Below, one piece after another: positions 28,521 to 64,000 of a DNA stretch of 64,000 bases. Numbering within the stretch: the stretch's first letter is position 1; each line of letters starts with the position of its first letter. The position numbers and the translations under genes are program-made. The notes under the pieces were generated by a model that worked only from the letters and a program-made list of their open reading frames with translations, ran no database searches and was not told the origin of the DNA. The DNA is from Psammoneis japonica (lineage: Eukaryota), in contig QPGO01000009.1 in assembly GCA_008632985.1 (NCBI GenBank), forward strand, positions 682,001 to 746,000. The letters are read 5' to 3'.

Positions 28521-28899
28521 TGCACTGTGCTCGAAGAACGAGTGTAAACGAAAGTAGAACGAAGTTCAAAAAGTGAAAATTATGAGAATTATTTCTACGC
28601 AATCATTTTGGGTTTCTCCGAACGGGTTCTCAATAGCCTAAACCTTTTGTACTGCTCCTACAGACAAAAGGCCTTTCGGAGAATATGATCGTGACAACAG
28701 ATTGTCCAGATGCGATTGATGTTGACACATGAGATGTCAACATCATCGTACGATCGCATTTGCGATTCTTGACATCCGATCACTTCTGTGTGACCGATCT
28801 GTACTTCGTACGAACCCACGATTGACGTACGATTGAAATGTGCTTTTATTTAACACATGGGTGAACACACATGATGCACACATGACAACGCACATTGCA
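28521..28899 (-). repeat. 3' LTR
   Basis: Aligns without gaps to 33325-33703 and 63369-63747; adjacent to the PPT. Confidence 0.97.
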
Positions 28900-28925
28900 C
28901 TCGCCTCCCCAATTGCACATTAGAG

Positions 28926-30019
28926 TCAGTCGTTAAACGGCATTATCCAACGAACATTGACAGTGTCAATAACGTCACCACGTTTGATCTGTGCTGTGCC
29001 ATTGGCATGTGCCGTTGTCATTGCGTGCGGTCCAACACAGGGCTGTTCTAATTTTTGCGAGTCTTTCTCGAGCAGTGTCTTTTCTCCTGCTCTGTGCGTG
29101 TGAGGAGTGCGTCGAGCATTCTCTCGAGCGTCATTTTTATTTGTGATTTCTTGTTTTCGCTGCTGGGTTGATTTCCAGTCTGCGACATGTTGGACGTCAA
29201 ATGTCATGTCTCCATTGAAGACCAGTTGTCCTGGTGCAGCTTGCGCAGTGGCATGACACGCAGAACGCACCGCAAATGCTGCCGCTGATGGCATTCCAGC
29301 GAAAGGATCCTCAGCATCTAGAGGTGCATGTTGCAAATCAAATGTGCGGAGCATGTTCCCCAGTGCTTGATGTGTGCGTTCAATGGCTGCGTTTGCTTGT
29401 GGATTTTGTGTGGTTGTGGGCTTGACTTCAATGCCACAATCATCTTGCACCATTTCTCTAAATTGGTGTCCGACAAACTCACTTCCACGGTCACATGTAA
29501 TTAACGATGGCCAAGGACATCTGCCCAACCATGTTCGTTCTAGGGCCCCAGCAGTCCAGCTGCAGTTGTGGACTCCTCACTTGGGATTTCCACAACTTCA
29601 AACCATCCGGTTGCTGAATCGATCATTGTCAAACATTTCAGGACTGGGGGTTCTTTCTTTCCCTTACGACACATTTTGTATGGCCCAATGAGGTCCACAC
29701 ATGGTCGTTCCCATGGCGCGGATTCTGCGCACTTGGGAGGTAAATGTCCACATTTCTTGTGTTTCTTTTTGAATTTTTGGCACGTCTCACATCTCGACAC
29801 GTATTTTCACATGTCTTCACGCAAGGTGGACCACCACAGGTGTTGTGAGATTGTTTCTTCTGTTCGATTTATGCCAGGGTGAAGAAGGTGCGCATGATGC
29901 CAATCCATCACTGCCTTTTGTGACGTCCTCGGGACAACAATTTTGTCCTTGTGACATGTGAGCAACCGGTCTCGCTCGCCTCCACGAAAAGTCTTCGTGT
30001 GAAACGTCTCATTTGACAA
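28926..30019 (-). pseudogene. Gypsy integrase, frameshifted
   Basis: WHHAHLLHPG..CETCQ (HHCC), VDLIGP, DRGSEF and NPQANAAIER spread over three ORFs. Confidence 0.92.
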
Positions 30020-30034
30020 TTGGGAGAGAATGTC

Positions 30035-32137
30035 TTAGTCCCGTTTTTGTTCACAATCAAGAACTTTGTAATTTAATGGAAAGACATTGTCGTGGGATTT
30101 TGGTGGGACCTTTTCAGCTGGCTCTTCTGTGCTGAGGGTTTCCACAGGTTCTATTTTCTTCACAGCAAGTCGGCCAATCGCATCTGCGACAATGTTTGCC
30201 TTGCCCTCAAGGCACATTGTTTTGGGACTGTGTTCTTCTGTCATTAGACGCCAACGCATGACTCTGTCCGTTGTGAAATTTTTGTGTGTGAGATTTTTGT
30301 GATCCGCACACATGTTTGTCTGTTGGCCAAACAGCACATTGCGGAACTCTTTTAATGTCTCCACTGTGGACAACAGTTCTTTTTCCGTTGCAGTGTGATG
30401 CGTCTGCGCTCCATTCAGCTTGCGGCTGTAGAAGGCAATTGGTCGGTTTTTCTGAGCAATGACCGCCCCCAATTGAGAATTGCTGGCATCGGCACATGTC
30501 TCAAAGGGTGTGTTAAAATTCGGGCATGACAACAGCATGTCTTTGGAGATGATGCGCTTCACATTTTCGAAGGCTTTTTGTTCTGTTTCGGTCCATTGCC
30601 ACTTTGCTTGGGCAGAAGTGAGTTTGGCTAAAGGAGCTAAAACATGAGATCGTCGAGGCCACATGTCTCGATGGCAGTTGATCATGCCGACAAAGCGTCG
30701 CAATTCCTTGCGAGTTTTAGGAGTTGCGATCGCGTGAATCGCTTCTACTTTTTTTGGAATCGGACTGATGCCCTTGCGGGTGACATGAAAGCCTGGATGG
30801 TCTGCTTCGGGTTTAGCGAAAAAGGACTTCTCGGCGTTGACCTTCAATCCGGCTTGTTCCAGGCGTAAGAACACCGTTTCAAGCTTCTTGAGGTGGTCTT
30901 GAAAATCACCTTTTGTGAGACACAATGTGTCGTCAATGTGAGTTCTGACGAACTCCAGACCTGCCATGAGCTCACTCATGTGCTCTTGGAAAACATCTGG
31001 AGCTCCACAGATTCCCATCGGGAGTCTACAGTGCTCATGTTTGCCCCAAGGCATGACGATCGTGCACAAGCGACGTGCGTGCGGCGTCAATTTGACATGA
31101 TGGCATCCCATGTTTAAATCTAGGGACGTTGCATGCATGAAGCCTTCGAGCTTCTGCAGCATGTCCTGAACATTGGGCAGAGGAAACGGAGTGCGAATCA
31201 ACCTCTTGTTTGGCTCACGAAAGTCGGACAAGAACCGAACTCTGCCATTTTTCTTGGGTTGAATGAAGGTTGGAGCCGCCCATTCAGAACAGTTTGTTTT
31301 TCTTGAGACTTTCAACTTGCACAGTCTTTCAACCTCCTTACGAGCAGTCGCCTCCAAGGCTTGTGGCGCGGGAAATGGTTTGGCATGGTGCGGACTCACG
31401 CCCGATTTCAACTTCAAATCCACCGGTTTCCCGGTCAATTTGCCCAGAGAACCATCGAAAAGGTTTTCAAATCTTTTTAAGAGGAAGTTCAGCTGCTTCT
31501 GCTCTTCAGGAGTTAGATGAGCAGCTGCTGCAGTCACATTGTTGAGGTTTGCAGCGTGACAGTCTGAGTCAAGGATCCGATTGACCCTGTCATTGAGACC
31601 AATCACTGCATGAGATTCCTCAATGTGATCGGCAATCAACTTAAAAACATCGGCATCGAAGAGTGCATCAACATTCTTCATGGGAGCAGCTGCATCTTCC
31701 CATTTAATCTCTTCATTCGAGAAGTCCAACATCATCCCAAGACTTGACATTAAGTCGCGTCCCATGATCACATCACAACGACTCGAAGAAGAAGGGGAGT
31801 TGTCAACATTTGCCGTTGTTTCGATCATCTTGTGTTTGTCAAATTCGGGCAAGGAGAATTGGATCTTACATCGACCATCAGTCGTAAAGAGCCCTCCTTT
31901 GGTTTCCCAGAGTTTGGTGGCGGATGCTTTGGTTCTGAGTTTCCGCATGAATTTGCGCAAAATTATAGTTGACGATGTTCCGCCATCGAGGAGAATGCGC
32001 AGAGGCTCATTTTTCGCTTTGCCCAATGAAGCATTGTACAGGCGACGACTGCTGGACCAGTGCGAATTACTTTGGCCCTTTTTCTGGGCTTCCCAATGTC
32101 CAGCAGAGCGCAAGACTCCTCTTGCGGTGCAAGTCAT
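30035..32137 (-). pseudogene. Gypsy pol (protease, RT, RNase H); catalytic YxDD mutated to HIDD
   Basis: LLDGG, WAAPTFIQPKKNG, LDLNMG, RLPMG, HIDD, DAS, EKELL and DHKNL motifs; only 3 Tyr in 700 aa. Confidence 0.95.
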
Positions 32138-33324
32138 TCCTCAGAGTCACTGCGCATCATTTTTTCAAACTGACAATTCTCCTCGTCAAGGGCATCAGAA
32201 TCACAATCTTTGTTCTTGTGCTTTTTGTCATTGTTCGAGGAACTCGCTTTGAGTGTTTTTTGAACTGCTTGGATCGCCATGGCATTCAACTCTTCTTTGC
32301 GAGCGGCGTTGTCGTTGTCGCGACGAGACCACGTGCGATTGCCATTTGAATGGCACCGTCTCGGGTCGGGTTCACAGTTCCCACGGCATTCTTTCACAAG
32401 TCTTTTGATCGACCAGCACTTGTCCGTGTTGTGAGTGGATTTCTCGCACAAAATGCACCACTTCTCGGACTGAGATTTTTCGGCACCATGTTGGTGACCA
32501 TTTTTGGAACCACGTTGGGAACCACTCTTGGCTTTTGATGCAGCACCACCACTGCCATCAGCCTTGGCATGAATGCCATCGAACATGTCTTCTGCGACCT
32601 CTGGGCGCTCCAAGAACTCAACCAACTCGTCACAGGTGTGTTTCAAAATTTCGAAACCCTGGACGGTCGACTGACGCTGCCACTTTCGAGGTGCAAGATT
32701 GAAGAGGATGTCCTTGAGCTCATCGTCCTCAATCTTCTGATCCTTCCCAAAGGGAGGATGGAACTTGAGGTCTTCGTTGACTTCCTGGACCCAAGCAGCA
32801 ATTTTGCGTACTTTCATGGACTCCGGCTTCTTGAGATCACGACGCAAATAACGTTTCTGCACCGAAAGTGCGCTCTTGGGAAACACATGCCTCGTGAGAT
32901 GTTGCAGGCATTTCTCGAAGCTTCCTTCTGCAGATTCGTCTTCAAGGTTCGCTGCCGCATTCTCGAAAGCACGTAGAGCGTCTCCTTGGAGTAACATGCG
33001 CATGAGACGAAACTTGTCAGATTGCTTCCTGACACTCTGGCCCACTGGAAGTTGATCGTAGCTCTTGAGAAATTCGATGAACTTGGGGACACCTTGTTTC
33101 TTGTAGCACTCGACATTGATGGTGCAGGTGCGGCTGTCCTTCTTCTCGGGATGAAAACGTTGCTCCATCTTGAGGTGCTGGCTCGGTTTGAGGCTCTTCG
33201 GCTCGGAGTTCGATTCCAGCGGTTGAGGAACGATTTTCTCCTGCCTTGACGAAGTTTTGGCGTTGGTTGCATGAGGTGAAAGCTTCATCTTGAACTTATT
33301 GCCTTCTGTGGTGTGCACACACAA
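32134..33324 (-). CDS. Gypsy gag with CCHC zinc knuckle
   Basis: QKRYLRR and CILCEKSTHNTDKC (CX2CX4HX4C); lies immediately inside the 5' LTR. Confidence 0.85.
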   Translation of the reverse strand: MCVHTTEGNKFKMKLSPHATNAKTSSRQEKIVPQPLESNSEPKSLKPSQHLKMEQRFHPEKKDSRTCTINVECYKKQGVPKFIEFLKSYDQLPVGQSVRKQSDKFRLMRMLLQGDALRAFENAAANLEDESAEGSFEKCLQHLTRHVFPKSALSVQKRYLRRDLKKPESMKVRKIAAWVQEVNEDLKFHPPFGKDQKIEDDELKDILFNLAPRKWQRQSTVQGFEILKHTCDELVEFLERPEVAEDMFDGIHAKADGSGGAASKAKSGSQRGSKNGHQHGAEKSQSEKWCILCEKSTHNTDKCWSIKRLVKECRGNCEPDPRRCHSNGNRTWSRRDNDNAARKEELNAMAIQAVQKTLKASSSNNDKKHKNKDCDSDALDEENCQFEKMMRSDSEE

Positions 33325-33703
33325 TGCACTATGCTCGAAGAACGAGTGTAAACGAAAGTAGAACGAAGTTCAAAAAGTGAAAATTATGAGAATTGTTTCT
33401 GCGCAATCATTTTGGGTTTCTCCGAACGGGTTCTCAATGGCCTAAACCTTTTGTGCTGCTCCTGCAGACAAAAGGCCTTTCGGAGAATATGATCGTGACA
33501 ACAGATTGTCCGGATACGATTGACATTGACACATGAGATGTCAACATCATCGTACGATCGCATTTGCGATTCTCGACATCCGATCACTTCTGTGTGACCG
33601 ATCTGTACTTCGTACGAACCCACGATTGACGTACGATTGAAATATACTTTTATTTAATGTATACATAAACATATATAATACGTACATAACAACGCACATT
33701 GCA
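33325..33703 (-). repeat. 5' LTR
   Basis: Direct repeat of 28521-28899, followed by the TSD. Confidence 0.97.
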
Positions 33704-33952
33704 CAGGACGGCATAACTGAGAGCAAAGCACCGTAGACTGTGGGCTTCAATCCCCGTTCTTGAGACAGTTTTCATCATTGTCGTGGCTGTGACTTTCACT
33801 CCCTTCATTGTTTTTCGTTCCTCCGTTTTCGTCTGGTGTCGTTCACTTCCCTCCTTTTCCTTTTCTTGCAGAGAGGGCAATCTCTCTGGCGGGGCTCTGC
33901 TCTGGCTCTAGAGAGCCAGCCAGTCTGACACTCCCACCCAACATCCAAGCTG

Positions 33953-36788
33953 CTTCATCCGGCAAGTGACAATTGTCCATGAGGAAACACCGTGTCATTT
34001 TTTGGGTTGTGCAATGCAGTGCTGTTTCCACATGTTTTTTGTTCACGCGCCATTTCGTGCCACCTTTCGTGCTGCCACAAAAACCTGCTGTGGACGGCCC
34101 CATTGAACCACTTCTTTTGGCCCAACCACAGCATCAAATGCCAATTTGATTCAATGGCATGACAGTGCAGATGCTCCAGTGCCGACTCCAAGTGCACGCT
34201 CCTGTCAATTCTCTGCCAGAGATGGCACCTTCACTCCAAAAGAACAGAGATGCTCCAGGGGTGCTTTGGCACCGAACAGCTCCCGACTCTGTTCTGGCTC
34301 TGCCCTGAGACACACTTCAGCATCCTCACATGATTGGCCCACATTGTTTGCCAACATTGAAAACTCATTCTCACTCAAAAAATCTGCTGGATTGCACCCA
34401 TCCCCAATGGCGTCTGGCTTTTGGGTGCCGCAGATTCTGTTCGCTCCTTCCCCGGATCAAGGTGCTCAGTCACCTCCACTCCCACGGGATTCTGCATCTC
34501 TTCTGAGTCAGAAACACACTAAAAAAACTTCCAAATTCCACAGTGAAGTGATTGTGAATCCTTTGTGAAAAATCATCCCTCCCACCACACTCAAAAAAAC
34601 AGTGTTCGCCACTTGACTGTGGTGCACAAACGACCGGGCAATGCCTCCCTCTGGACAGCAATCACAAACACAACAAATGGATGCCCACAGTTGCTTCCCT
34701 TGCAAACGTCAACCACTGTTTTCAAGCCCTTGGTCTTCAGTGACCATCTTGGCCATTGCTGGAAAGAGCATGCATCCTCAATGTTGGCCAGTGGGAAAGC
34801 TCCCAACCATGCTGAGTGAATTCATGATCAACGCAGGCCAAGAGAACTGAGTCAATGTGTGGCATTGCATTGTCACACCGGAGCTGAAGATGCACTTGTT
34901 TCCCAACATTGTTCTCCACCCTCTGAGACAGTGCTTCCATCTTTGTTAACAGAACATTGCAGAAGTGATGCAACAGCTCAAACTTTAGATTTTGTTGCAT
35001 CCCTGAGTTTGATCCAGCAACTCTTGGATGACAGAATGATCCATCAACTCTGTGCACATGGCAATGCAAGCAATTCTTTGTTTTCAGCTTTCCACTGGCA
35101 CAAGCACAATTGACCTTGTGCGTGTGGCCCCCTTTCTGAAAATCATTTTTGGCAGGCACAAATGCTGTGGTTGCAAGTGCCAAGACCTCACCAACATGAT
35201 GTTTGTGGTGCACTGCATGTGGCTCCGGAATGCATCCAAGGAAGAGAACAGTTTTGTTGTGTTGGCAAACCACCAATGAGTGTGACCACTTTTTGTTCAT
35301 GTGCAAAACAAGAACTTGAGTTGTCAAAGCTGTCATCTTGGTCCCATGCCAAAAGACATGCCGCACAATTGACCAGCACTGCTTTTGTGTGTTGTCGAGT
35401 GCAAGCAGCAGTGAGCACAGGGAGGGCCCAAGTGCTGGCGCATGATGATTCTGGTGGGGACTTTGCAAAACACATCAACATGACATGTGCTGCAGGTTTC
35501 ACATTTGTGTTTCTGCCAACAACCTGACAAAGCAAGCTTTCTCTGTGTTGTTCTTCATCTGTTTGTCTTCCTCAAAATTTTTCCTGCCTTGCCTGTCAAA
35601 ACAACCCAGTTTGCCATTTCAACATTTCAGCTCCTTGGACAAATGGCAGATGGCTCTCTGCAGCAAGTGACTCAAAGGGTTGTTTCAACTCAATGTCATC
35701 ATCAAACCATTCCCCATGATTGTTGTTGGCTCTTTGGCACCACTTGAGAAGTGCTCACATGGTGTGTGGACCTGACCCTGCTTGTTGTCCAAGTTCAATG
35801 CTGTCACACCAGTGCCACACCGCTTCTTCTTTGACATGTCATTGTTTTGCTTGAGAACCCATTTGTGCATCCTGGGTGCCAGTCATCTTTTTCATCACAC
35901 TCCAAGCAGGTGCATGATCAATGAGTGGATTTGCCCCCCTTTGTGGATTTCACTTGGTGTCAATGCATTTGCAACATTTTGGGTGTCACACAGCAGCCTT
36001 CTCACTGGTGACAGCAGCTGAGATTTTGGCTTTGGGTGCAGACAACTGGCAGCAGAAGCCACTGCCTGGTGAACCCACCCTTTCTCCTTCACTTCACCCT
36101 GTCTGGGGTGTTTCAACATGGCACTTCTTTCCAATCCCACTCATGACCCAATCTTCTTTTGCCTTTAGAAGCAGACCTGTGGTGCCTTTTGGTCTTTGTT
36201 GTGTTTCTGTTGTGCCCACAGTTTTGCTGCCAATGCTGTGGAATCAAGCTTGTTTGTTGTGTTCTGTCGTCAATGTCGTCAATGGCCGTTCAGCTTCAAA
36301 TTTGTCAATTGCTGATGAACACTTGTAAAGAGCCACCAATGCTGCAGGAGAGAGTCTCCTTGTGACAATGTCAAGACTGAGTCTGTTGTTGAATGCATGC
36401 AATGCATTTGCTTGACCATTGGCAGCATTGAAGCCCATGGCAAAGCCAACTCGACCTTTGCTGTCAGGTCATCCCGGCAGCACAGCATTGCGGCATGCCA
36501 CACTGCACCCCGCCAATGCACACCAGCTGAGTGGATGCTTGGATGTGGTGGAGAAAGAGGGTCCATGGTGCCGAGGCACATCATCACATCAAGCAGCAGT
36601 TGATGGCATGAGCAACACATCTGATTGTCACTGCAGCAGCTCCATGTGCTCTGATGGTGGTGGGCCATGGATGAACTTTTCCCTCCAAGAAAATTTCTTG
36701 CTGCACAGCAGAAGCATGACTGCACTGCATGGCCCAAAACAAACAACATGGCATTTTGTCATGGACAATTGTTGCTTGCCAGAGGAAG
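33953..36788 (-). mobile_element. Tc1/mariner-superfamily DNA transposon relic with Stowaway-like TIRs
   Basis: TIRs: cttcatccggcaagtgacaattgtccatga at 33953 versus the reverse complement of the right end cttcctctggcaagcaacaattgtccatga (to 36788). Decayed DDD motifs on the minus strand: HMNKKW (from H.DEKW), CDNAMPH, NIEDACSF. Flanks TG and CA are consistent with a mutated TA TSD. Confidence 0.8.
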
Positions 36789-38229
36789 CACCTGCTGGCA
36801 GCTGGAACAATCAACAAATGACAATGGGAGGTGCGCGTCACTGGACAAAGACGACTCCCATCAGATTCGACTCTCAGACTGACTGACATGCCAAAAGTCA
36901 TTTCGACAGAAAGCAAACGCTTCAAGCCAAGGCTGTGGCTGATTTGTTTGCAAGTCTCAAAGTCTCAGGTGCCACCCCAAAGAAAACACAAGCAAGCTCA
37001 GTGTGTGGATGGGGCAAGCAGTGCGGTCTGACCACAACCAACCCAGAAAACCACTGTGTGGTTGCCATGATTTTGGGTGTGGATCTGCACTTTGATGTTG
37101 ACGAGAGAAAAAGGTGTGGTTGCCATGAGCATTGCTGCAGACTCCAACTCTGACAGCAACAAAGGGAATCCTGGTGGGTTTCTTGACATTGATGTTGTTG
37201 CAAAGCAACGTGACACAATTTTTGGGGACTTGAGAAGTGGTGGCAGTGGCGCCTCAGTGCAGCAAAGTGCAGCAAAGCACCGAGCGCAGATGCAGTGCCA
37301 TGCTGCATCATGGTTGAGTTTGCTCATGCTCTTTTTCAGACAAGAGAGAATGAACATGTGAGGCATTCAATGCATTTGACATTCATTGTCATCAATTAAA
37401 ATGTGAGTGTGCAGATGAAGAGGAAATCCGGGCCACACCAATCATTTGGTTGGTGGGAAGCATGGTCCAAAGCACATGGACAAAACTGTGGATCCATGGT
37501 CTCGCCGACTGCACTGCGCTTTTTTGTGCTCCATTGGCTTGGTGCCTCAGTTGCATTGAAGGCATGTTTCAAAAACACATGGGTGCAGTTGATGCAGGCT
37601 TGCACAAATGTTCTGGTCATTCTGCAGGAGTCATCACCACCTGCACAGCTAAAACCCAGAAAGACATTGTCGTTTTGCCAGGTGTTGGATGTGCTTGCTA
37701 GATCCAGCTCAATGACCACTTCCACAAGATCATTTTGTGTTAGCATGATGCTGTAGCAACTGCGCGTTGTTGCCCTTGCCGGCCATCTGTGTTTCCAACA
37801 AGTGACCTCTGTGTCAATGTTGTTGCGTGCACGTTCAATGTTTGGCTTGCTGTTTGTAAGGCTCTCTAATGGATGCTGGAACATGGATTGATTGTGGAGT
37901 TCCACCACAGCGTTGCTTCTTTTGTCTTCTTTGAATGGTCCTTGCTTCACTTGCTGCTTTCTCAGTTGTTGCCATGGTGTCTTAAAACTGAGGACAAACT
38001 GGAGTGAAGTGGGTGTGCAACAATGGACATTTGAACAATCAACATCCTCTGCTCTTGCAGCCACTTCTGTGGTCCCAGCTAAGTCCTCTGCCAACTGCAG
38101 CCATGAGATCATGCTTTGATTGTCTTTCAATGCTGCCATTGCCATGTCCGCCATGGTTTGCCTTTTGTGCTGCCAGCCCTGAGCAAGTCAACCCCACCAG
38201 AAACAGCGTTCAGTCGCCACAAAAGCTTC

Positions 38230-39725
38230 CATTAAGAGTCACCTGGCAATTCACACTCTTCCAGATCAACCACAATCGGTTTTGTTCTTCTGAACTCATC
38301 ACGAAGCATCATGTGATTGCAAAAATTTGGTCCCCGGTCATCGCCATCCACATCCAAATGACGAAAGCCACACTTCTCTTCAAGCTCCCACAACACTTCA
38401 CCCTAATCTTCAAGACGAGCACATTGAGGCGGTGCCTCCACCATTTGCATGCCAAAATAGATCACACCAAAACCTTCGGCAATGAACTTTGGTTCCAGAA
38501 CAAGTCGACCCCATGCATCCTTCAAATGTTCACAAGCATTGATCTCTCGTTCAAACGCTTTCATGCCATTGTTCTTGCAAGTGTCAAAGAGTTTCAGCGC
38601 AACTGTTTCTCCCTTCCACGTCCCACTGAATGTTGTCCCATGACGGCCATGCCCAATTGGCTTGCCCACTTCAAAATGCCGAGAGTCACCGCAGAGACAA
38701 TTCCTGCAGCGTGAGACCGAGATTTTGATTTTCTTCCACCTGTCCTCCAAGATTTCCTTCAAGAACTGGAAGAGTTTCTTTTTTTAGAATTGCTCTGATT
38801 CAGTCGAGGATGGAGCTTCGCTTTCAATTTGTCCGGCGTGCCTTCAAGCCAGGTCCGAGCAAGAGCAGCCTTGTCAAGAGGTGGCTGAGTGTCATCACGT
38901 CCACTTGCGTAGAAGAAAGCCCATGCGCAGAGGCAGTTCTCTTGCCCGACAAACCATGCATCACTTGTGTGCACCTTCTCTCCCCCAGTTTCGGCATCCC
39001 GGTGCATGAGAACAAAACAAGTTCTCGCTCCACTTGTGAGAACACCATGTCGACAACTGTCAAGCACCATGTGTCTGAGAATTTGTGAGACGGGGTGACA
39101 AACATGAGACCACCCCAGGGGGCGTCGCTGTCTGTCAGTTCTGTCTTCCGACGTTTGATCAACAACCTCTCTTGCATGGTTGCATTGCGCGACCACTTCT
39201 TGCACTGTCATTGGCAGGGGCAAGTCATGTGTTGACTTGGATGCCCCCACAACTGTTGGTTGGGTTGCCTGCCATTCTGTTGAGAAGTCAGGGGCACCCT
39301 CGCGATTTCTCGAACCCCTGACTAAATTGCCGATTGGGCCCAACTGCTGGAGCGGTTGCAGTGCGAATCTTGCCAAATGATTCTCCTCATCCCTCTCGTC
39401 ATGGCACTCAATGTCATCCGCAAGACTTTGCTTCATCCCACTCACCATGTGACATCCCACTCTTCCATCTCCATTGGCACTGAAACTCGTCACTGGTTCT
39501 GCAAATCCGCGCCAGGTTTCGATCCTCAGTGGACAATGTCAATTGGCGTGACCCTCAGATGCCGGACTGTGGCACAATGCGAGTTCATCACTGGCAAGGA
39601 GACAGGGTGAGGCAACGCAAAGCGACAAAAACTCCTCGTGTGTCAGCTCTCGAAATGGAGAGACTTCATCAAGGCAACACAAGGCGATCTGTCTCTTTCT
39701 CTCTTGCCGTGCCGCACGTTCATTG
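38230..39725 (-). pseudogene. Crinkler-like nuclease-fold + protein-kinase gene relic
   Basis: HPVSQILRHM..RHGVLTS..RTCF followed by IGHGRHG..WKGETVALKLFD..FEREI.ACE.L..WG.LV, D.RGPNF and VVDLE; frameshifted, with Tyr replaced by His/Cys. Confidence 0.6.
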
Positions 39726-41073
39726 ACTTCATCATCAGCAAGAATGATTCTTTGCTCACTGTTTGTGCTGACTCCCAAATCTGATCGTTGTGACAGATCA
39801 AGATTCAGGACGATCCCACTGTTGCTGTTCTCCTGAAAATGGACATGGAAATCGGCAATGGCGCCCGCAAGCTCTGACTGTCCGAATCATCCATGTTTTG
39901 CGTCCTGATCACCACATGCCAGTGCGCGATCGATTGATGTTTTACTGAGCGAGATGTGAGAAGAAGCGAGGAATCATCGCTGTGGCGGCGCCGAGCGGGC
40001 GGTGAGGCTCACGATCACTCTCCAGCCATCATGACTGTCCTCAACCCGTGACTCAAGGGTGCATGAGGTGTGCCCAGGATTTTCAGTCACGAGTTAAGAC
40101 ATCAGAACCTGTTGATATGAAACTGGGACAAACACGTCTGAATGGCCTCTTTTCTTCTACAGCACCGGCAAAACACCCTGCAATTGTGAAATCTGAACTC
40201 TGGGAGCATTTTCACGGGTGACAGAGAGCAAAACAGACTGAAGAAGCAAGGGGTGGATGTGTCCTTCAGTCCCCGTTCTCAAGACAGTTTTCATTGTCGT
40301 TGTGCTTGTGACTTTCGTTCCCTTCATTGCTTCTCGTTTCTCTGTTTCCTCAGCCAGAGTGAAGGTGCGAGTGGCGCTGCAAGGGAAGATTCAAACTTTC
40401 AGTTGTCAAGGCAGAGGGCACTTGCACTCCCGCCCAACATCCAAGCTGCCTCTCTGGGGCCCTGCTCTCTAGCTGCTAGCTCTAGAGCAACAAACAAGTG
40501 ACAGTGGGAGGTCCATCACTGCTAGATGCCTCCTCAGTGGCAGGTGAAGACGACTCCTCCCACCGGATTCGACGACTCTCAGACTAACGAACAGACACCG
40601 GCGGCATAAATCCAAATGGAGAGTCATAGAAGAGTCATTTCGATAGAACAATCTTCATTGTCTTTCCCTAAGTTAGTCCGAAAATGTCACGGCACTGACA
40701 ATTGTCCTAAATGTCATTCCTCCGGGGTCTTTGTAGATGACTTAAAGACGGTGTCAAAAAAGTGTTTAAATCGGTCATCACCACAAAAACAATCGCATTC
40801 TCACTAATTGACAATACCGTTAGTGACCTCCCCTAAGTGATCGCCAAGACATTTCCATTGTAGATTTGTCCGATTACGATCACAATTTGAGGCACAAAAC
40901 ACTCCAAACGCAACCGGTTGTGCCAGCAGAGAACCGCAACAGAGCTCTCCGAACGCGTTGCAGTCATAATCCGGTTGGAGCAGAGCTTTAGCAGCATCCT
41001 TGCTGTTTGTTTGTTGCCATTTACTTCGTCCTTTGACAATATACAGAAAAGCTTCTCCTTCCGGTTTACCAGG

Positions 41074-41949: not shown

Positions 41950-42069
41950 AGACGTCATGTCACCAATGTAACGTTGGGGACCAGAACAACGGCAGTATCT
42001 AGCTACAGTAATAGAAAAACGACACGCACTTTTGCTGCTACTCTTTCTTCTAGAAGACTCCGCGCTCAG

Positions 42070-42720
42070 TTAGTTATTGATCGTGCTCAACGACTTGACG
42101 CTTGCCTCGACCCGTTTCCTCGTCCTTTCCGACGTTTCTTTCTTGTAGTCGTAAAAATCTCCACGGAATCGAGTCGCATGACCTTCGCCGACGACCCATA
42201 ACTCACGGCACGTGTTTGTGATGAAGAACTGGTCGTGACTGACCACCATGAGTCCACCGCGATAGTCTTTCACAGCCTCGACTAAAGCATCAATACTCTC
42301 CATGTCCAGGAGCTATATGACGAAGAGAAAGCAAACGAGGGTCGTCAGAGAAAACCCCAACAACGAGAAACGATCATACCTCGTAGTTTCCCGCACTCTT
42401 ATCATATCATCCACCCCCTGCTATCGTCTGTACTACTCACACTCCATTCTTTCCCACCAACCCATATCATCGTTTATACGCCAACTTGAGTTCCCCATGA
42501 TCCAACAGGGACGTTCCACTATCCAATGACAAGGACACATTACACACTTGAATGTCTCGTTCGTTCCTCCCGCTACTGTACCGTAATCCGGCAGGACCAT
42601 GTTGGACACGACGGAACTACCCGTATTCTCTTCTTCTTCTTGTTTTAATTTCTGCTGATACTCGTTTCGCGCCTTTTCCAATTCTTGTCGCTGTTTGGCC
42701 ATGGGCGTGGAGCTCAAGTA
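42070..42720 (-). pseudogene. ABC-F (GCN20/ABCF3-like) pseudogene with a large internal deletion
   Basis: NBD1 start (RDIQV.NVSLSLDSG.SLLD.GELKLAYKR*YGLVGKNGV, with a frameshift and a TGA) lies about 130 bp from the NBD2 end (LDMESIDAL..GGLMVVSHDQFFI..LWVV). Confidence 0.85.
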
Positions 42721-50949: not shown

Positions 50950-53900
50950 TAGACCCACATGTCTGACAGGTGATGTTGTTTCAATTGAAGCAAGTGCGTT
51001 GAAGATGAAGTCCAAGTCAAAAGCTGTGTTGTCATCACAACTTGCTCACAGGAGCTAAATTCAGTCGCTGGACCAATCAAATTGTTGGATGCAGACACAA
51101 AAAGTTGGGATTTGGTGATTTGAAGACTCCTCTGGGTGGATGCTCCTTCGTGCATGATTGTTCTGACATGCCCTTTTGCTGGCAGCAGTGGGTTGCAAAT
51201 GACTGCTGAGTTGAGTGCCATTGGTGAATCAAGGGTGACACTGCCATGACTCATTCACCATTTCTTGAATGTGCACGGACGCAAGGATGGCATCTGCGCA
51301 TGAGAGAATCTGAGAAATGGGAAGCAAAGCCAGAAGACAAAAGTCAGGTGAAAGCTGGGCATGTGAAAAAAACATTGTCTTTGCTGTGTTTTTGTTTGGG
51401 TGCTGCTCACACTCCCTCTCCAATGAAGAAAGAGTGCCAATGATGTGATCACAGGAATCAGTTTCATCTTCAGCTCAATGTTGACAGCAAAGATTTGTGG
51501 GATGTGGCACCACAGCTGGCAAGAGGACAATGTTTGCACTGCAAACACAGTGATGCTGCAAAACAAAAGTCTGTCATGACAAGCATTCTGGCCAATCATT
51601 CAACAATGCTGCCTTCATTCTCAGGTGCAATGCCTTGATCACTCAGCCTGAGCTTCTGCTCTCTTCTTTGCTTTGCGCCATTGTGAGTTGAGAGCAAATC
51701 ACTCCATCTGAGCCACCCTCTGCTGACAGACAGAGAAGTTGAAGTTTTGCCCTCCTGCGCACCACAAGTTCAATCTCTTTGTCACTCACATCCAACTTTG
51801 CTTTCTGCTGGCATGTCTGCCACACAGCAATTTGCTCAACAGACTGTGTTGCCCAGCTCAAGATCCCACTCATGAGATGGATGAGTTGTGTGCTCAATTT
51901 CTCTCAAGCACGAGCCATTTGTGGCCCTTCCATTGCCTCAAACATTCATGCCACAATGCCAAATGTTCTGTGTTTAAACCACATGATTCACCAGATTTGT
52001 TTTCATTCACCAGCTTTGGTCAGCAAAAAACAACCATGGCCACAATGCTGCTGAACAAAAGCAAACACACTGCGTGTGACACAAAAAAGCTGCTGGGATG
52101 TCAAAGTGGCAGAGACAGAGAACAAATCTGAGTGAAAGCACAAATGGGAACAATGTGAGCACACCAAAAGCAAAAAGTGGCAGAGTCAAAGATGGTGGGC
52201 ACCACCATGTTGTCAGATGTGATCCCACCATGCTTTGCCATGCTTTTTTTTGTTAAAGGTCAGAGGCAGGAGTTGGAAAGCACCCCAAATTTCTGCATGG
52301 CTTTGGATGCAAAATGGCGCCAAATGGAAATTTCCCTTCAGAAGTGAACAAAGGTGCTTCACATGCAAAAAGTGATGAGTGTTCAGCAATTTGCAGCAAT
52401 GAACATCAACACATGAGGTGTGTGATGGGAAGGATGTCTGAGGTTGAGGGCCCAAGGTCTGATGCTGCAAGATGAGGTTGGGCTCTCACTTTGTGATGCT
52501 GGTTGAGGCTGCCAGTGCTCTCTGGCAGCAAGCAGAGAGACAGACTCTGCCTGGCACAGCACTGTGCTCAAATGCATCAGCAGGCATGTGTTTCCCAGTT
52601 GATGACCAGCTGACAGACCAGTGACTGACAACTGCTTTTGTCGCACACTTCTGTCATCAGTTTGTTTTGCTGAGAATGGCTGGGCATGACTGAGCACAAC
52701 CAATGCTTGCCAGCTCCTGTGTGCTTTCAATGATTGCCTCTTCCTGCACATGTGATCAACACCTGCCAGTTCACACTGCATGTGCATGTGAAAACACAAG
52801 AACATGTGAGGCAAAAAATGACCCACTCTCAACAAAATCTGGAGACATCAATTTCTTGACATTCATTTCACACTCACATTGCACTGCCATGCCTGTGACA
52901 CAGCAACATCCATCAGCTTACCATGAATGTGAGCTCCACATTTTGTGCACTCTCACAAATGAAGCAACTGCATCTCTCACAGAAAAATTGTGTGGGATCC
53001 CTGGAAAAAAGCAAAGCATTGTGCTGCTGGAGAGCACAGTAAAAAAGAAACATTGTGCAGCTCAAGCTGAGCATGCAAAGGCCACACAGTGAGAAGAAGC
53101 TTCCCTCTGCCAACACTGTGGTGCTTTAAAAAAAATGCTTTTCTTGTTGTTTGTTGTGCTGCAGAAGAAGAGCGAGAGCCAAAGGAGCTGGTGTCCAGAG
53201 AGCTTTTGCATGGGGGTGGGGCAGAGATTTGCTTGACTGGGTGGTTGCTGATGCTCTCACCCTCTTGTCAGCAAGCTCAGCCACCACAAGCTTTCTCAGA
53301 ACATTCTTTGTGGTGCTGAGAGAAAGCAAACCAGCCAGCCAGAATCTCCTGCACTGCTGGGCTAGAGAGTGCTTCAACAACCACTGGGCTTTCCAGCAAA
53401 GACATGACTTTGCACATGCATCACCAACAAGGCAACTCAAGTGCACAGTGCTCTGTCCACCACAAAGACATGTTGCAAAATTCTAATTTGACAAGCAGTG
53501 TGGTGGCGAAGCAGGTTGTTGCACTCTGGTGGTGCATGGCAGCAAATGTTCTTGAGAGCACTGCCCATTGGCACAGGCAACTCCAGGAGTGCCTCACACA
53601 ACTTCTTGGCTTTGGTTCTCTGCCTCATGACACCTTGCCAGCCTCTCAAACTGAAATTGTGCAAGGTGGGAACCCACATTGCAGGCAGAGCCTGTGCATC
53701 TTTTTGCCATCTTGTGTTTTCTCAGCGGACTGCCTCAGTGCCTCTGTGCAGTGATGGCCCATTTCTTCTTCAACATGAGCAATCAAGGTGGCCTCAAAAG
53801 ACAAATGACAACAACATGAGGTCCCTTCTGAGAGCTTGTCTGATGACAGAAACACACTGCCCCAGCTGGATTTTTAACAGCAGGCAGAGCTGTGAATGCA

Positions 53901-56900
53901 AGCATTTGGCTTCACAGTGGCAAGCACTTGCCAGATTGTGTCACTTCTTTCTTTTTGCTCAAGCACTGGCAGAGCAGCATGGTTTCCCTTCCATTTGTGC
54001 AGCTGTTTTGTGCTCTGCTGTCTTCTTGCCAAAAAAGATGTGTCTTTCACCCCAACATGCTCTGACTGTGGACTCAGTTTTTTGCCAAATCACAATTTTT
54101 TTGCTGCCAGACCCACCATCAAGAATGGCGGGCATGTCACTGTGTGATGCATGCACAAAACAGCACCCTCACTGACTCAACAAGCATGGCTCCATTTCAG
54201 CATGAGTTTGCAAATGTTGCAGATGAAAACCACCAAACCACATCACCATGGCAACTTTGTGGTCACTTTTTCTCAACAACATCACCTTCAAGTGCTGCAG
54301 CAATCAACAGCACATTGCACCTCTGCCTGAACTCACTTGAGATTGCCAAATGTTGACTCGTGCATTTCAGTTGATTTCTCTGCAATCAAATGACTTCAAT
54401 GCACAGCAAGGCATGCACACACATGACACAAATTGTGTGCCATTGAAATTTGTCAGTTTCATGGTGAGTTTGTTGTTGTTGATGGAGTGTGTTGCATTTG
54501 TGGCTGCAATTGTTTTGAGGCAGTTCACAAACTTTTGGTGTTTGTGTGTGACCTTTGACACACAACAAATTAAAAATGTACGAGAGTTGACAGAGGGCCC
54601 CCATCCATCATGGACTTGCAGCTTGCTGTTTTCACCATGGTGAAGCATGGTGGAATTCAAAAAAATCATGCAAATCACATGCTGTTGGGCCAAAAAATTT
54701 TAAGCTGAAAACAGCAGCAAACAACCCCTCTCAATGCACAAATGCTGACATTTGGATTGCTGCCAGCAAAAAAAAATTGATGTTTGGCAAAAGAAAAACA
54801 GCAGGTTGGGACTTTGGGTGGCTGGCTCCCCACAAATTCAACTGAGACAAGGTGCAGACAAACTCTGGTGTGGGTGCAATCCATGTGACAGAAAGTTGCT
54901 CTTGCTGTCTCTGGAGCAATGTCTGGAAATTCAAGAGATTTTCCAAAGATGAAGCGGCAGTGTGGGCTGTCAAAACGGTTGTGCCACAACTTCAAGCAGA
55001 GTCACATGAGCTGCTTTTTGGTGGTTTGGCATGAAACAAGGCAGAGCTTTGGTCTGTGGTGATGCTGTGCATGCCAGTCCAAAGTCTGCACAGCACATCA
55101 GGAGGAAACACTCTGTCCTCACTTCTTGTTGCCACACCCACCAAGGGCTTGCAAGACTGCACCAGGGTGCAAATGCAAGCTGTGCAGAGCCTGTGCTGCC
55201 ATGCATGGCTGCAAGTGCTCAAGCAATCTTGACTGCACAAACAGCATGCAACATGGCACAAATTGGATGTGTGCAAAGAGCAAAAGTTCTGGCTTTTGTT
55301 GTGGTTTGTGCAGCATGCATGCACAAGCTCCACAAGACACTTGTCTTCCTCCACCTGTCAGAGGAACTTTTGCTCATGTGCAGTGTTGACATTGAGAGTT
55401 CATCACATCAGAAGCCTGAGGTGGGCTTCTGCAAAACCCAGCACAAACTGCACTGGTGCTCACACTGTGCATTGCAGCACAAATCCTTGGCACCCACCCC
55501 ATCACCCAGCCATCAACCAGCACCGTGACCAAGTTTTGTGCTGAATGTTTGTCTGGCAATGGCTGGGTGTAGATTTTCAGAGTGGTGCAGCTCTTCTCTG
55601 GAGGGGATGGTTTGGCTGCCTTTTGGTCTCACTGGGGGGTTGCATTGCTCACATGGGGGGCAAAATCTCTCTTTGCCCCACCGGGATTTTGTGCAGGTTC
55701 TGTCATGTGAGTCAAAGAGGAGAGAAGAGAGACACAAACTTCTGGAGGAGGAGAAAGAGCCAGAGAGAAGGGAGGGGGGGTTCTCATCCACACTTGGCCC
55801 TGGTGACACAAACTCACATCACAGCAGCAACGACAGCAAAACTGAACTAAACTGTGAGCTGGCAATGAAAACACCTCCTGGTCTGGTTGTTTGGCTGGCT
55901 CTGCTGCTGAAAAGAGGGAATGCAGCCACCAGTGCTTGTGCCAAGGAGAACAATGAAGAGGCCAGATGCCATGGCACACTCCTGCTCACCAGGAAACTGT
56001 CAACAAATGCTTCAAGAGCTGCAGAGTGCTGAGCAAGAGAAATTCCAAAATGCCACCTGGCCAAGCATGCCAGCATCTTTTGGCTCTGCAGCTGTCCATC
56101 CAGTGTGAGCAGTTGGGTGTTGTTGATGTTGCAGTGCTCTGGCTTGGTTTTTGTTGGACAGTCTGCTGTGAACTTCTCTGGCAAACTCTCTCTGTGTTTG
56201 ACAAAACCCAAGATCATCAAGCAGTGGCAAGCATGTCTCACACAGCAAACAATGACTGGAGCACAGGCAGGTCTGTCATGCAATGAGAGTGACTGTGTCA
56301 TGTGCAGCACACCTTTCTGCATTTGCTGCTGATTCTGCTGTGCATTTTCACAATGATGTGGTCAACATGTTGCAGCTCTTGTTGCAGCAGCTTCATGATC
56401 TCCTGCAGCATTTGTTGCACTGAGAGCAGACTGGGGAACAGCCACCCAGCTGCAGCTAAAAACAACAGCTGGGCTCTCCACACTCAAGGGTTGCCAGCTC
56501 TCTCAGCCAAAGCTGGAGAACTGTGCTGTTGTGTGAATGCCATTTTGGGAGTGGGGGTGAGTGTTGGCAAAAAGGACTCATCCACAAAATCTGTTTGGGA
56601 GCTCCATCTCATCCTGTCATCTCTTGAGGCTTGGTTTCATGATCTACACTGGTTTGTGAGTTGGCTGTCCATCCCATGCTTCATCTGCTGTGGAGAGCTC
56701 AGTCAGACATTGGCTGCTGCCAGTTGTTCAATGGTCAATTTTTTGCCCTTTGGAGCACCTTTCAGGAGCTGCATCTCAGAGAGACTGGCCTTCTGGAACA
56801 ACACAAAAAGGGAAACTGTCCTCCCATGGTTTGGACAGTGTAGATCAGATCATGCATTTGGACTTCATGGTGGGAATTGTGGGAAGAGCACAACAAGGCA

Positions 56901-57240
56901 ATGCATTGCATGGTGTGGACTCACTGAAAGCATCCCAATGTCGGTGGACAGAAGCTGAACTTGCAGCCATCCATGACAAATGCCAAGAACACCTGGCAAA
57001 GGACAGAGAGGCTTTGTCAGATTTCCTTGAAGATCCCATGTCCAGCTCTGCATCCAGGGCTCAGAATTGGGTCACCATGGTCAATCCACATGATCCAAAG
57101 GAAAGCATCAAGAAAGTGAAGAGCCCCACACTTCACAGCACTCCCACAGTCACCAGCTGTGGATTCACTCGCAAGAAGGTTCAAGCTACCTGCATCATCT
57201 ACACAATTTGTCCACAACATTCACGTGTGTTTTGAAATGA
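50950..57240. other. 6.3-kb TpA/CpG-depleted domain with decayed gene relics
   Basis: TA and CG both nearly absent; contains an SRPBCC paralog relic and weak LRR- and PPR-like traces. Confidence 0.85.
54810..54990 (-). pseudogene. Hypermutated SRPBCC paralog fragment
   Basis: FIFGKSLEFPDIAPETARATF...HLVSVEFVGSQPPKV aligns to FIVSGSFEFPDVTPEMARATF...HLLSVEFVRGEPSTV (49830..50390). Confidence 0.75.
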
Positions 57241-61828: not shown

Positions 61829-63368
61829 GAACAAAGTATTCGTGACCTTTGTCACTCTTCCCGCTGACTGGTATGTTTTGGAGACACTCTGTCGGGTACG
61901 AATGGCTGAGCCGAGGGTACTGAGAAGGGTAAGAGGGATCTGCGTTCTGTGGCCCATGGAATCAACTGCTCTCACCAGACCATAGCGTTCGCTCGCAACT
62001 TGACTGGCGCAATCACCGCTGCAAGTCCCAGGCGAAACTGCTCTGTCGGAATAGAGCGAACTGCTGCGAGTGCTTGGTATGGTTGTTGCGCTGCAGGTGG
62101 TCGGTCGTCGACTTCGCCGTCCCGACGGTCATCACACCTCGGCGCACTGCGGCGGCGTTTTTGAATGCTATTGCTGGGACAAGAGATTCTAGGAATGCCT
62201 TGCATAATTTCTTGGATGTAGTACTCCACCTCGTAATGCTTGACAAATTTCGTCGCCCTTTTCAAATAATGCATGTGTTAGGCGGGAATACCCCCGGTCG
62301 TGACGAACATTTACAGAGAGAGCCTACGTTTCTTTGCCATTTTCTGCTTTCTTAACGGTCCGCCTCAGCGCCTCAACATAGTAATGGCCTATTTCTTCTT
62401 CAACGTGAGCAATCAAGGCGGCCTCGAACGATGAACGACAACAAAATGAAATCATTTTGGAGGACACGGCAGATGGCAGGAACACAATGGTCCAACCAAT
62501 TTTACACGAAGATCTTTTGCTGTCACTGGAAGCATCAGTAGGTTGAATGGTGAATGTGAATGTTTGGCATCCCAGAGGCGTCCATTTACTGGATTCCATC
62601 ATTTCTACGCCAGCATTCACCGAGTAATACGGCTCCTCATCGATTTGTGTAATTGTTTTGCGCAAAACAATTTCACCACCTCGAAAGGTGCGCCGTTCAT
62701 CCCAACAAGCCCCAACCGTCGATGGCTCACCCCTCACAAACTCGACAGATAGCAGGTGCGGAACAAACTCAGGTGCGGAAGTTATGTCTCAGAACGTGGC
62801 TCTTGCCATCTCTGGGGTAACATCTGGAAATTCAAAAGATCCGCTAACGATGAATTCTCGACATGTTGAAGCGAGAGGTCCCATTGTAGTTTCGAGTAAA
62901 TTTGCTCGTTAATTTGCAGCTGTTCCAAACGACAATAGTTCTGCTGCTTTTTGGTGCTGCAGTTTGGCAAAGCGATTGCAGCAGTGACCCATGTAAAGCA
63001 TCAAGCACCAATTGGTCCGTTAAGCAAGCTGTCCATGTCCAGATGAACAACGAAGGCTGCGTGCAATTTTTTCTAGAGGGATGTCGTGCGTACTGTAGGG
63101 CCCTAGATCAGCGATCAGCAGAACACGTCCGGGTCGTCACGGTCCGAAAATTCCATGTGCATGAACATGAACCAGGTGTGATAGTTAGAATTACTGAGAG
63201 CAAGACAAGACCTGAATGGTTACCAACGTGTTGTCTTCATCGTCGCCGACTGTACGGTAGTCTAGCTAGCTAGTCTTACCTTGTGGTTGACAACTTCTCG
63301 CGCATGCAGCGCAGTGCGATGAAACCCAGTCCGACCCCGCCACGCCCCTCCTCGCAAAACAACTCGTG
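61829..63368 (+). repeat. Segmental duplication, copy 2
   Basis: Matches 49326-50878 and is cut at the LTR insertion. Confidence 0.95.
62324..62884 (-). pseudogene. SRPBCC duplicate with a premature stop
   Basis: Same 561-bp span as 49830-50390, with CGA(R)->TGA at 62789-62791. Confidence 0.85.
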
Positions 63369-64000
63369 TGCACTATGCTCGAAGAACGAGTGTAAACGAA
63401 AGTAGAATGAAGTTCAAAAGGTGAAAATTATGAGAATTATTTCTGCGCAATCACTTTGGGTTTCTCCGAACGGGTTCTCAACAGCCTAAACCTTTTGCAC
63501 TGCTCCTACAGACAAAAGGCCTTTCGGAGAACATGATCGTGACGACAGATTGTCCGGGTGCGATTGACATTGACACATGAGATGTCAACATCATCGTGCG
63601 ATCGCATTTGCAATTCTCGACATCCGATCACTTCTGTGTGACTGATCTGTACTTCGTACGAACCCACGATTGACGTGCGATTGAAACATGCTTTTGTTTG
63701 ATGTGTAGATGTGTGTGTGCAATGCGTGCATGACAACGCACATTGCATTCGCCTCCCTAATTGCACATTAGAGTCAGTCGTTAAACGGTGTTGTTCGACG
63801 AACATTGACAGTGTCAACAACGTTGCCGCGTTTGATCTGCACTGTGCCATCAGTGTGTGCCGTTGTTGTTGCACACGGTCCAACATGGGGCTGTTCTAAT
63901 TTTTGCGAGTCTTTCTCGAGCAGCATCTTTTCTCCCACTCTGTGCGTGCAAGGAGTGCGTCGAGCATTCTCTCGAGCGTCATTTTTATTTGTGATTTCTT
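63369..64000 (-). mobile_element. Second copy of the Gypsy element (3' LTR 63369-63747, PPT, integrase end), truncated by the window edge
   Basis: Colinear with 28521-29150. Confidence 0.95.

Follow-up and report, generated by a model that had tools for sequence, protein, structure and literature searches.

ADAR- and TadA-type enzymes favour a 5′ U or T, and oxidised thymines mispair with G. In E. coli, very-short-patch repair, which is tied to cytosine methylation, corrects T:G to C:G and has been proposed to deplete CTAG. In fungal repeat-induced point mutation (RIP), described in part in the RIPCAL abstract, C:G is changed to T:A, mainly at CpA to give TpA, and the product is TA-rich and GC-poor. 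In Crypthecodinium cohnii, according to the available parts of one report, 5-hydroxymethyluracil (5hmU) replaces T preferentially in TA and TC, with most of its loci inside transposons and in overlap with 5-methylcytosine (5mC) (PMC11572971). The accessible portion of a survey of marine eukaryotes describes a single-domain DNMT4, related to fungal RID, that was found among the surveyed organisms only in diatoms and whose function is given as unknown (PMC9998398). Here, a 64,000-nucleotide stretch of Psammoneis japonica DNA (GenBank assembly GCA_008632985.1, contig QPGO01000009.1, positions 682,001 to 746,000; the window) was analysed. It carries a Ty3/gypsy-like element with two long terminal repeats (LTRs), and part of a second copy, in which TA dinucleotides have become TG or CA. 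The loss of TA runs in this direction, uses both strands, is faster than the loss of CG, is restricted to certain regions and also acts on sequence that is not a retroelement. The probable reading, which we hold with moderate confidence, is a regionally targeted process at the DNA level that erodes TA and CG to TG/CA.

The element is 5.2 kb long, and its LTRs (A and B) lie in direct orientation, begin with TG and end with CA. CAGG stands on both flanks, confirming the target-site duplication that had been proposed in an earlier, sequence-only reading of this stretch. LTRs A, B and C, the last from the second copy, are 379 bp each and align without gaps. The parts of both copies are listed below, in window positions; the target-site duplications carry no strand.

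28517..28520: left target-site duplication CAGG, from sequence reading; the identical four bases stand directly after LTR B
28521..28899, minus strand: LTR A, 379 bp, the element's 3′ LTR, 16 TA; TA present in LTR B is missing at positions 6, 191 and 319-363
28900..33324, minus strand: internal region of the Ty3/gypsy-like element, recognised by Pfam reverse transcriptase (RT) and RNase H domains, integrase-bearing homologues and Tyr loss
30035-32140, minus strand: RT plus RNase H frame (Pfam RVT_1, RT_RNaseH and RT_RNaseH_2)
32134-33369 and 28926-29576, minus strand: further open frames of the internal region
33325..33703, minus strand: LTR B, 379 bp, the element's 5′ LTR, 24 TA; without TA at positions 70-139, where LTR A has TA
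33704..33707: right target-site duplication CAGG, from sequence reading
63369..64000, minus strand: LTR C (63369-63747, 379 bp, 10 TA) and 253 bp of internal region; this second element runs past the window end

RT followed by RNase H, directly repeated flanking LTRs and a target-site duplication together place the element in the Ty3/gypsy class. Its RT frame had 945 homologues at E ≤ 1e-30, with integrase domains in most of the 120 listed; in the element itself, no Pfam match was obtained in the frame at 28926-29576, the expected integrase part downstream of RNase H. The best protein match was only 58% identical, and the homologues, at 50-58%, are outgroups and not siblings. A degenerate 28-nt LTR motif gave no matches in JGI metagenomes. 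The frames of the element have observed-to-expected ratios (o/e) of 0.13-0.25 for TA and 0.8-0.9 for CG, and a Tyr content of 0-0.97%.

LTRs A and B differ at 27 positions (92.9% identity, no indels), by 26 transitions and one transversion. These comprise 14 TA<>TG and 4 TA<>CA exchanges, two TG<>CA double sites (4 positions), 3 differences at CG and 2 others. The recount thus agrees with the roughly 27 mismatches of the sequence-only reading, given there as 22 at TA, 3 at CG and 2 elsewhere, without indels. The strings that it had quoted for LTRs A, B and C, namely caaTAgcc/caaTGgcc/caaCAgcc (LTR position 114), ttgTActg/ttgTGctg/ttgCActg (130) and gaTGttg/gaCAttg/gaCAttg (200), were all found in place, as were the three versions of the AT-rich 32-nt LTR end. 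When 27 random substitutions were put on either LTR, on average 7.0 and at most 16 fell at TA, and none of 20,000 trials reached the observed 18; the outcome was the same with transitions only and with transitions and transversions at 2:1. Positions lying in a pyrimidine–purine step (YpR) in all three copies (n = 206) hold 25 of the 27 A/B differences, the other 173 positions only 2. It had been argued from the sequence that LTR-divergence dating would greatly overestimate age, and here it is indeed inflated several-fold, with 7.1% total divergence set against 2 differences in 173 non-YpR positions. Between LTR A and LTR C, taken together with the internal region (632 bp), 71 differences were counted, of which 70 were transitions, with 20 TG<>CA double sites. 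The effect of the flanking base on TA loss is weak, ATA being the least kept in the LTRs and GTA and TAC the most kept in the window. At the A/B TA sites the LTR without TA is A at 13 and B at 5 (4 without position 76), and the two alternate blockwise along the sequence, with B lacking TA at 70-139 and A at 6, 191 and 319-363 (P = 0.0016). This clustering points to regional events or tracts rather than to clock-like change.

For the direction of change, 30 homologues (50-58% identical) were aligned to the RT frame, a column being taken as conserved when at least 80% of them share its residue. The element keeps 268 of 335 conserved columns. Conserved Tyr was kept in only 2 of 18 columns and was otherwise replaced by His (9, TAY>CAY), Cys (6, TAY>TGY) or Phe (1), and no case of the reverse, a change to Tyr, was seen among five conserved His and one conserved Cys. 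Tyr makes up 0.43% of the RT frame versus 2.84-5.35% in 120 homologues. All 12 A>G replacements at codon position 1 (six Ile>Val, three Thr>Ala, and Met>Val, Lys>Glu and Ser>Gly) are preceded by T, against a background of 76 of 206 (P ~6e-6). Other replacements by a TA step are Ile>Thr written ACA (3), Leu>Pro written CCA (2) and Leu>Ser written TCA (1), and of the 67 conserved columns with a replacement, 33 or more come down to a single TA>CA or TA>TG step. Read on the sense strand, the RT frame has 18 A>G and 15 T>C changes, so that both strands are affected, as had been claimed. No strict single-strand bias is seen there; the LTR pair does show some bias on the plus strand, with 14 TA<>TG versus 4 TA<>CA (P = 0.03).

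The state of the wider family was obtained by placing contigs of one public run (X1) on the element, where depth is summed k-mer depth and not copy number; two further runs, X2 and X3, contained almost nothing of the stretch. A total of 4921 contigs could be placed, 1372 of them less than 90% alike. Over 28300-33324, depth was about 57 in the flank, about 8,000 (5,000-12,000) in the interior and 34,000-43,000 in the LTR, or about 140 and 600-750 times the flank for interior and LTR, respectively, a profile suggestive of a family of very high abundance in which solo LTRs are numerous. The variable places shown are the best-supported 40 of 1058, at which at least about 89% of the depth differs from the window. 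Private changes among them were CG>CA (10), CG>TG (3), TA>TG (4), TA>CA (2) and TG>TA (2); the rest consisted of one transversion, six T>C before T, two TG>CA double sites and eight others. Per site, TA>TG/CA occurred at 6 of ~72 and TG/CA>TA at 2 of ~842 (P = 5e-6), with CG>TG/CA at 13 of ~250, and 18 of the 37 private transitions were A>G or T>C. At all five non-synonymous or stop sites that homologues can judge, the window holds the derived state and the family the conserved one. Two private TA>CA changes alter conserved residues, a Val (19 of 30 homologues) and a Leu (30 of 30).

Two side observations concern the same data. The pol frame of this copy stops at a private TAA at 30035-30037, where about 90% of the family k-mer depth reads AAA (Lys). 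A transcription-linked asymmetry is possible, TA<>TG outnumbering TA<>CA in the LTR pair (14 and 4) and CG>CA outnumbering CG>TG among private changes (10 and 3, plus strand), where the CG>CA excess implies that C>T fell mostly on the element's sense strand; the numbers are small. That TA loss might track the transcribed portions of each LTR is a speculative further idea.

That the differences are YpR transitions would also be expected if cytosine deamination alone were at work, whether RIP-like or by 5mC decay, with ancestral CG passing through TG/CA to TA as the end product. Both courses were fitted in a four-state model to the 170 YpR sites of the three LTR copies, with free root frequencies and one rate class. 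The full model (log likelihood, lnL, -408.6) gave a TA loss of 0.318 per direction per LTR branch and a TA gain of about 0, with a CG loss of 0.032, some 10 times lower than the TA loss, and a CG gain of 0.003; the branch shared by A and B was nearly nil (tX 0.07). The C>T-only model (lnL -456.7) was 48 lnL units worse and was rejected by ~94 units of the Akaike information criterion. The site pattern gave the same order of events. At the 18 sites with TA in one of A and B and TG or CA in the other, C shows the reverse of that TG or CA at 8, agrees with it at 6 and has TA at 4, whereas C is flipped at only 1 of the 47 sites at which A and B share TG or CA (Fisher P = 7e-5 versus 8/18). Independent loss from an ancestral TA predicts this pattern; gain of TA from TG/CA does not.

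In favour of cytosine deamination, CG>TG/CA is real (13 of the 40 shown private changes) and LTR A carries one verified TG>TA change, and the window also holds a RID-like single-domain DNMT gene, DNMT4 genes being reported from diatoms in the available part of PMC9998398. As the sole course it is contradicted by the outgroups, which show Tyr codons lost and not gained, by 19 CpG sites that are intact in all three LTRs beside supposedly fully decayed sites, and by the most diverged copy, C, having the fewest TA (10 versus 16 and 24). Half of the shown private changes are moreover A>G or T>C, and the element and the islands described below are TA-poor, not TA-rich. We consider deamination alone highly improbable, and the course CG to TG/CA to TA was ruled out by the outgroups, the family state, the model and the site pattern. 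The claim of the sequence-only reading that TA was lost independently to TG and CA stands on the Tyr loss, the 12 of 12 T-preceded A>G replacements, the private changes, the model and the flips seen in C. The methyltransferase gene is as follows.

229-2352, minus strand: C-5 cytosine methyltransferase frame, 707 aa, with a complete domain at residues 381-691; nearest Atlas clusters are ascomycete and DNMT-only

Judged by its sequence, this predicted protein fits the RID-related DNMT4 family; the frame lies 26 kb from the hypermutated element.

The distribution of TA was then taken over the window, which has o/e values of 0.40 for TA, 1.35 for CA, 1.37 for TG and 0.79 for CG at a G+C of ~48%. 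TA o/e comes to 0.44 once long open frames are set aside and to 0.41-0.66 at the three codon junctions in host genes, and all 16 NTAN contexts are depleted (0.29-0.60). Host-gene regions show TA o/e 0.5-0.7 and CG o/e ~1. Within islands totalling ~19 kb, TA o/e is 0.01-0.07, CA and TG are near 2 and G+C is 0.46-0.51. The islands, and a repeat pair bracketing one of them, are given below, none with a strand.

5901..7000: TA-poor island, TA o/e 0.05, CG o/e 0.28
14601..17000: TA-poor island of complex sequence, not microsatellite; 2 TA in 2.4 kb (o/e 0.01), CG o/e 0.52
33801..40100: TA-poor islands adjoining the element's right side, TA o/e 0.02-0.03 at 33801-37600 and 0.05 at 38501-40100
33745-33830 and 40264-40349: 86-nt repeat pair bracketing the island right of the element, 81% base identity, 98.8% purine/pyrimidine identity
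46701..48600: TA-poor island, TA o/e 0.05, CG o/e 0.17-0.20
51001..57200: TA- and CG-poor islands containing a decayed third copy of a duplication, TA o/e 0.03-0.07, CG 0.04-0.10, CA/TG ~1.8-2.0

CG o/e in these five islands runs from 0.70 down to 0.04; the one value of 0.88 belongs to a sixth TA-poor stretch, which lies within the element (32001-32900). In each island the TA o/e is at or below its own CG o/e, and this, together with the ~10-fold difference in the model, bears out the earlier statement that TA loss outpaces CpG loss. Across 64 one-kb bins, TA o/e rises with CG o/e (Spearman 0.71) and falls with CA/TG (-0.81). The 86-nt repeats are possibly what is left of the ends of an older element, with the gypsy-like copy having inserted next to it. 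A microsatellite origin of the islands was ruled out by sequence reading and by Tandem Repeats Finder, which returned three short arrays, none of them in an island. None of the 60 open frames of at least 110 aa that overlap the islands had a retroelement domain in a Pfam scan at E up to 0.1. In the same frames only an MTHFR fragment (48886-49302) passed the Pfam cut-off, beside weak SRPBCC, sulfotransferase and other chance-level matches.

A non-retroelement duplication served as a control, with two copies outside the islands and a third within one.

48886-49302, minus strand: MTHFR fragment (E 1e-9), adjoining the left side of copy 1
49326..50764, no strand: copy 1, the control, which keeps TA and CG; it lies just right of the MTHFR fragment and overlaps a weak SRPBCC-like frame
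49833-50414, minus strand: the weak SRPBCC-like frame, below the Pfam cut-off, inside copy 1
61829..63250, no strand: copy 2, 121 differences from copy 1
53514-53869 and 54799-55005, no strand: copy 3, decayed, inside the 51-57 kb island, found by purine/pyrimidine recoding of the window

Over 1.4 kb, copies 1 and 2 differ by 121 substitutions (8.7%; 73 transitions, 48 transversions) and retain 70% of their TA. Copy 3 has lost all 11 TA sites common to copies 1 and 2, to CA (8), TG (2) and GA (1), and 13 of the 14 common CG sites, with one kept. Set beside the outside copies, the decay of the island copy indicates that erosion took place in situ, on DNA that was never reverse-transcribed, and is bound to the region.

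The low TA o/e found everywhere in the window and the depletion of every NTAN context would suit a genome-wide neutral bias, in which TA>TG/CA is the fastest change throughout, the islands are old neutral DNA and selection keeps TA in genes. The outside duplicates set a limit on this, as they keep 70% of their TA at 8.7% divergence, while in the LTRs, at ~1% non-YpR divergence, about half of the TA is gone; measured against background, TA loss is by rough arithmetic ~30-fold higher in the LTRs than in the duplicates. Intergenic stretches other than the islands also retain a TA o/e of 0.5-0.7. A neutral bias of this kind is therefore an unlikely cause. That TA loss is regional, and not a general property of TA in the genome, is an addition to what the sequence-only reading had described.

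The duplication also bears on editing before integration, in which a UA/TA-preferring adenosine deaminase would act on element RNA and on single-stranded cDNA, so that copies are born hypermutated. The minus strand of the 3′ LTR is single-stranded late in reverse transcription, which lets edited LTRs differ. Such editing would explain why per-copy TA loss is very high on a low background (2/173 non-YpR), why losses are clustered and how active master copies stay TA-rich, and it agrees with the 3′ LTR, A, lacking TA at 13 sites versus 5 in B, mostly as sense-strand T>C. It does not explain why a non-retroelement duplicate, and kilobases of island DNA in which no retroelement domain was recognised, carry the same signature, nor why A>G and T>C are nearly equal (18 and 15) when the RT frame is read in sense; the changes proper to LTR B are all sense-strand T>C, opposite to the prediction for a 5′ LTR. 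In the sequence-only reading, single-round RNA or cDNA editing had been taken as excluded. Strand-specific editing does not fit the strand balance of the RT frame or the non-retroelement copy, and editing before integration is a rival of low probability.

In a family of this abundance, the A/B differences might stem from ectopic gene conversion or from mosaic assembly or polishing of a high-copy repeat, and not from point mutation in this element. The k-mer depth, though no measure of copy number, is very high (LTR ~600-750 times and interior ~140 times the flank), 23 of the 27 A/B differences fall at sites without family uniformity of ~89% or more, the differences lie in blocks by LTR (P = 0.0016), and the one transversion travels with the 319-363 block. 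In that same block, though, no copy of the three resembles another, the window's base has some k-mer depth at most shown private sites, and the model leaves almost no branch shared by A and B (tX 0.07). Conversion would, in any case, still require TA>TG/CA mutation, merely elsewhere. We regard this explanation as rather unlikely for the A/B differences, while giving it some weight.

Systematic base-calling errors at modified CpG and TpA, giving false TG and CA, would equally confine the changes to two palindromic dinucleotides and to certain regions. Five of the 40 shown places are without any X1 contig carrying the window's base, and only 66% of the sampled words of a 9-kb stretch are present in X1. 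At the remaining 35 places the window's base does have some depth, and the three copies hold different, internally consistent states; TA absence on the kilobase scale, open frames in all phases and coherent Tyr>His/Cys replacement are hard to obtain from random miscalls. An artefact of this kind is very improbable.

Several observations weigh against regional erosion of TA as the full account. All of the evidence was drawn from a single 64-kb window, with three LTR copies and one public run. The 40 shown private changes include six T>C at the first T of TpT (plus strand) and one AA>AG on the opposite strand, so that A:T>G:C is not confined to TpA. TG<>CA double changes exceed the two-step expectation, with two sites among the private changes and 20 between A and C, and LTR position 76 is the verified TG>TA change in LTR A. 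The blocks in the LTR pair fit regional bursts, but would be explained equally well by conversion tracts derived from other copies or by mosaic assembly, the repeat being of very high copy. The model works with a single rate class and with A and B branches of equal length, and its ancestor has a third of the YpR sites as TA, far more than the host, whose TA o/e is 0.40 in the window; such a TA-rich ancestor calls for selection on active master copies or for recent arrival. The choice of the best-supported 40 places, finally, under-samples hypervariable sites, and absolute rates are not derivable from them.

A palindromic YpR target, transitions, the use of both strands, regional restriction and the joint loss of CpG together resemble the effect of a mutagenic base modification on silenced DNA. 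The changes in the LTRs appear to have arisen in place after insertion, in regional bursts, and their likely cause would be a mutagenic mark, or an enzyme, that acts on TpA where DNA is silenced and methylated at CpG. As envisaged, the process would erode both self-complementary YpR dinucleotides, turning TpA into TpG or CpA by A:T>G:C on either strand and CpG into TpG or CpA about 10 times more slowly. It would strike the high-copy gypsy-like family and would have gone nearly to completion in the neighbouring islands, where YpR is almost all CA/TG at a G+C of ~48%, so that the LTR differences would represent an early stage of island-type erosion. It is possible, and we put it forward tentatively, that a silencing-linked mark or enzyme acts on palindromic TpA in parallel to 5mC on CpG, and hypermutates transposons and silenced DNA by A:T>G:C, in diatoms or in this lineage. 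The TpA system may take the form of a heritable thymine or adenine modification or of a DNA A:T editor. Any specific chemistry is speculative at this stage. The preferred candidate would be a TET/JBP-like dioxygenase making an oxidised thymine (of the 5hmU or 5-formyluracil, 5fU, type), which would mispair with G; second comes a deaminase acting on adenine in DNA, and biased T:G repair on heteroduplexes between copies would be a further alternative. Nothing on TA>TG/CA hypermutation or on TA-free islands in diatoms or other algae was found in the titles and abstract openings searched, and if a TpA-directed mark or editor is behind the erosion, there is a real chance that the phenomenon is categorically new.

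Further observations were made elsewhere in the window. Two ankyrin-repeat frames at 2491-5183 (plus strand) have TA o/e of 0.31 and 0.17, ~1.1% Tyr and 9% His plus Cys; they are closer to the eroded transposon frames than to other host genes, and a repeated gene family may thus also have been hit. The window reads as nuclear DNA of a photosynthetic eukaryote. A light-harvesting-protein frame lies at 13448-14386, its nearest clusters having mostly Bacillariophyta members, and there is a single N at 61205. A dinoflagellate origin was rejected, since a spliced-leader motif had no match at up to 3 mismatches and both the light-harvesting and the DNMT look-alikes point to diatoms. Stop triplets in the window number 419 TAA, 420 TAG and 1362 TGA, the first two each being ~3 times rarer. 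There are 33 stop-to-stop frames of at least 200 aa, several of which overlap on both strands (e.g. 10868-12691). The scarcity of TAA and TAG yields long open frames, and open frames are therefore weak evidence for genes here.

These features have practical consequences. Spurious long frames on both strands, left by the removal of TAA and TAG, will mislead gene callers, and dead transposon copies keep long open frames, so that a copy cannot be taken as active because its frame is open. Decayed copies will be missed by homology searches unless transitions are ignored; recoding as purine/pyrimidine raised the identity of the 86-nt pair from 81% to 98.8%. If the erosion reading is true, TA- and CG-free islands would be fossil heterochromatin, and could map long-term silenced chromatin from sequence alone. 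Should the pattern hold genome-wide, it would be a repeat-associated hypermutation at the A:T of TpA, which none of RIP, CpG decay, APOBEC and ADAR performs, and it would point to an unrecognised base modification or DNA editor in diatoms, which are major marine primary producers.

Among known systems, very-short-patch repair in E. coli offers a methylation-linked change of T:A to C:G with depletion of a TA-containing word, but is bound to the Dcm context, whereas all 16 NTAN contexts are depleted here. APOBEC3, which edits C>U in cDNA, and ADAR, which edits A>I in RNA, share with this locus clustered transitions, a neighbour preference and the inactivation of retroelements. Their action is strand-specific, precedes integration and affects retro-copies only, while here the strands of the RT frame are equally affected and a non-retroelement duplicate is included. 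Decay of CpG driven by 5mC resembles the CG>TG/CA component, being palindromic, on both strands, regional and correlated with TA loss. It cannot convert TA, though, and TA is lost ~10 times faster in the LTRs; in the island at 14601-17000, TA loss is complete with half of the CG kept. To our knowledge, no base of the 5hmU or base J type is known in diatoms. Thymine hypermodification, as 5hmU in dinoflagellates and base J in kinetoplastids, is nevertheless the nearest precedent; the 5hmU of Crypthecodinium cohnii agrees with the present case in target dinucleotide and transposon association, and its overlap with 5mC would match the link to CpG methylation, insofar as the available source describes it. 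The two differ in that TA erosion is not described for 5hmU in the accessible parts of PMC11572971, and in that the present phenomenon is known from the DNA sequence alone.

Fungal RIP is similar in being transition-only, on both strands and with a dinucleotide preference, in striking repeats and transposons, and in killing coding capacity and inflating LTR divergence; a RID-like (DNMT4-type) gene is likewise present in the window, and the affected family is high-copy. The chemistry runs the other way. Where RIP consists of C:G to T:A only, the outgroup-polarised changes here are mainly A:T>G:C at TA, and in place of a TpA-rich, GC-depleted product, TA o/e is 0.13-0.25 in the element and 0.01-0.07 in the islands at a G+C of 0.46-0.51. 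TA thus vanishes with G+C unchanged, and stops are removed, not created. If the present reading is true, the process would be a mirror image of RIP, deleting Tyr codons, TATA-like and AATAAA-like signals and TAA/TAG stops while G+C stays constant.

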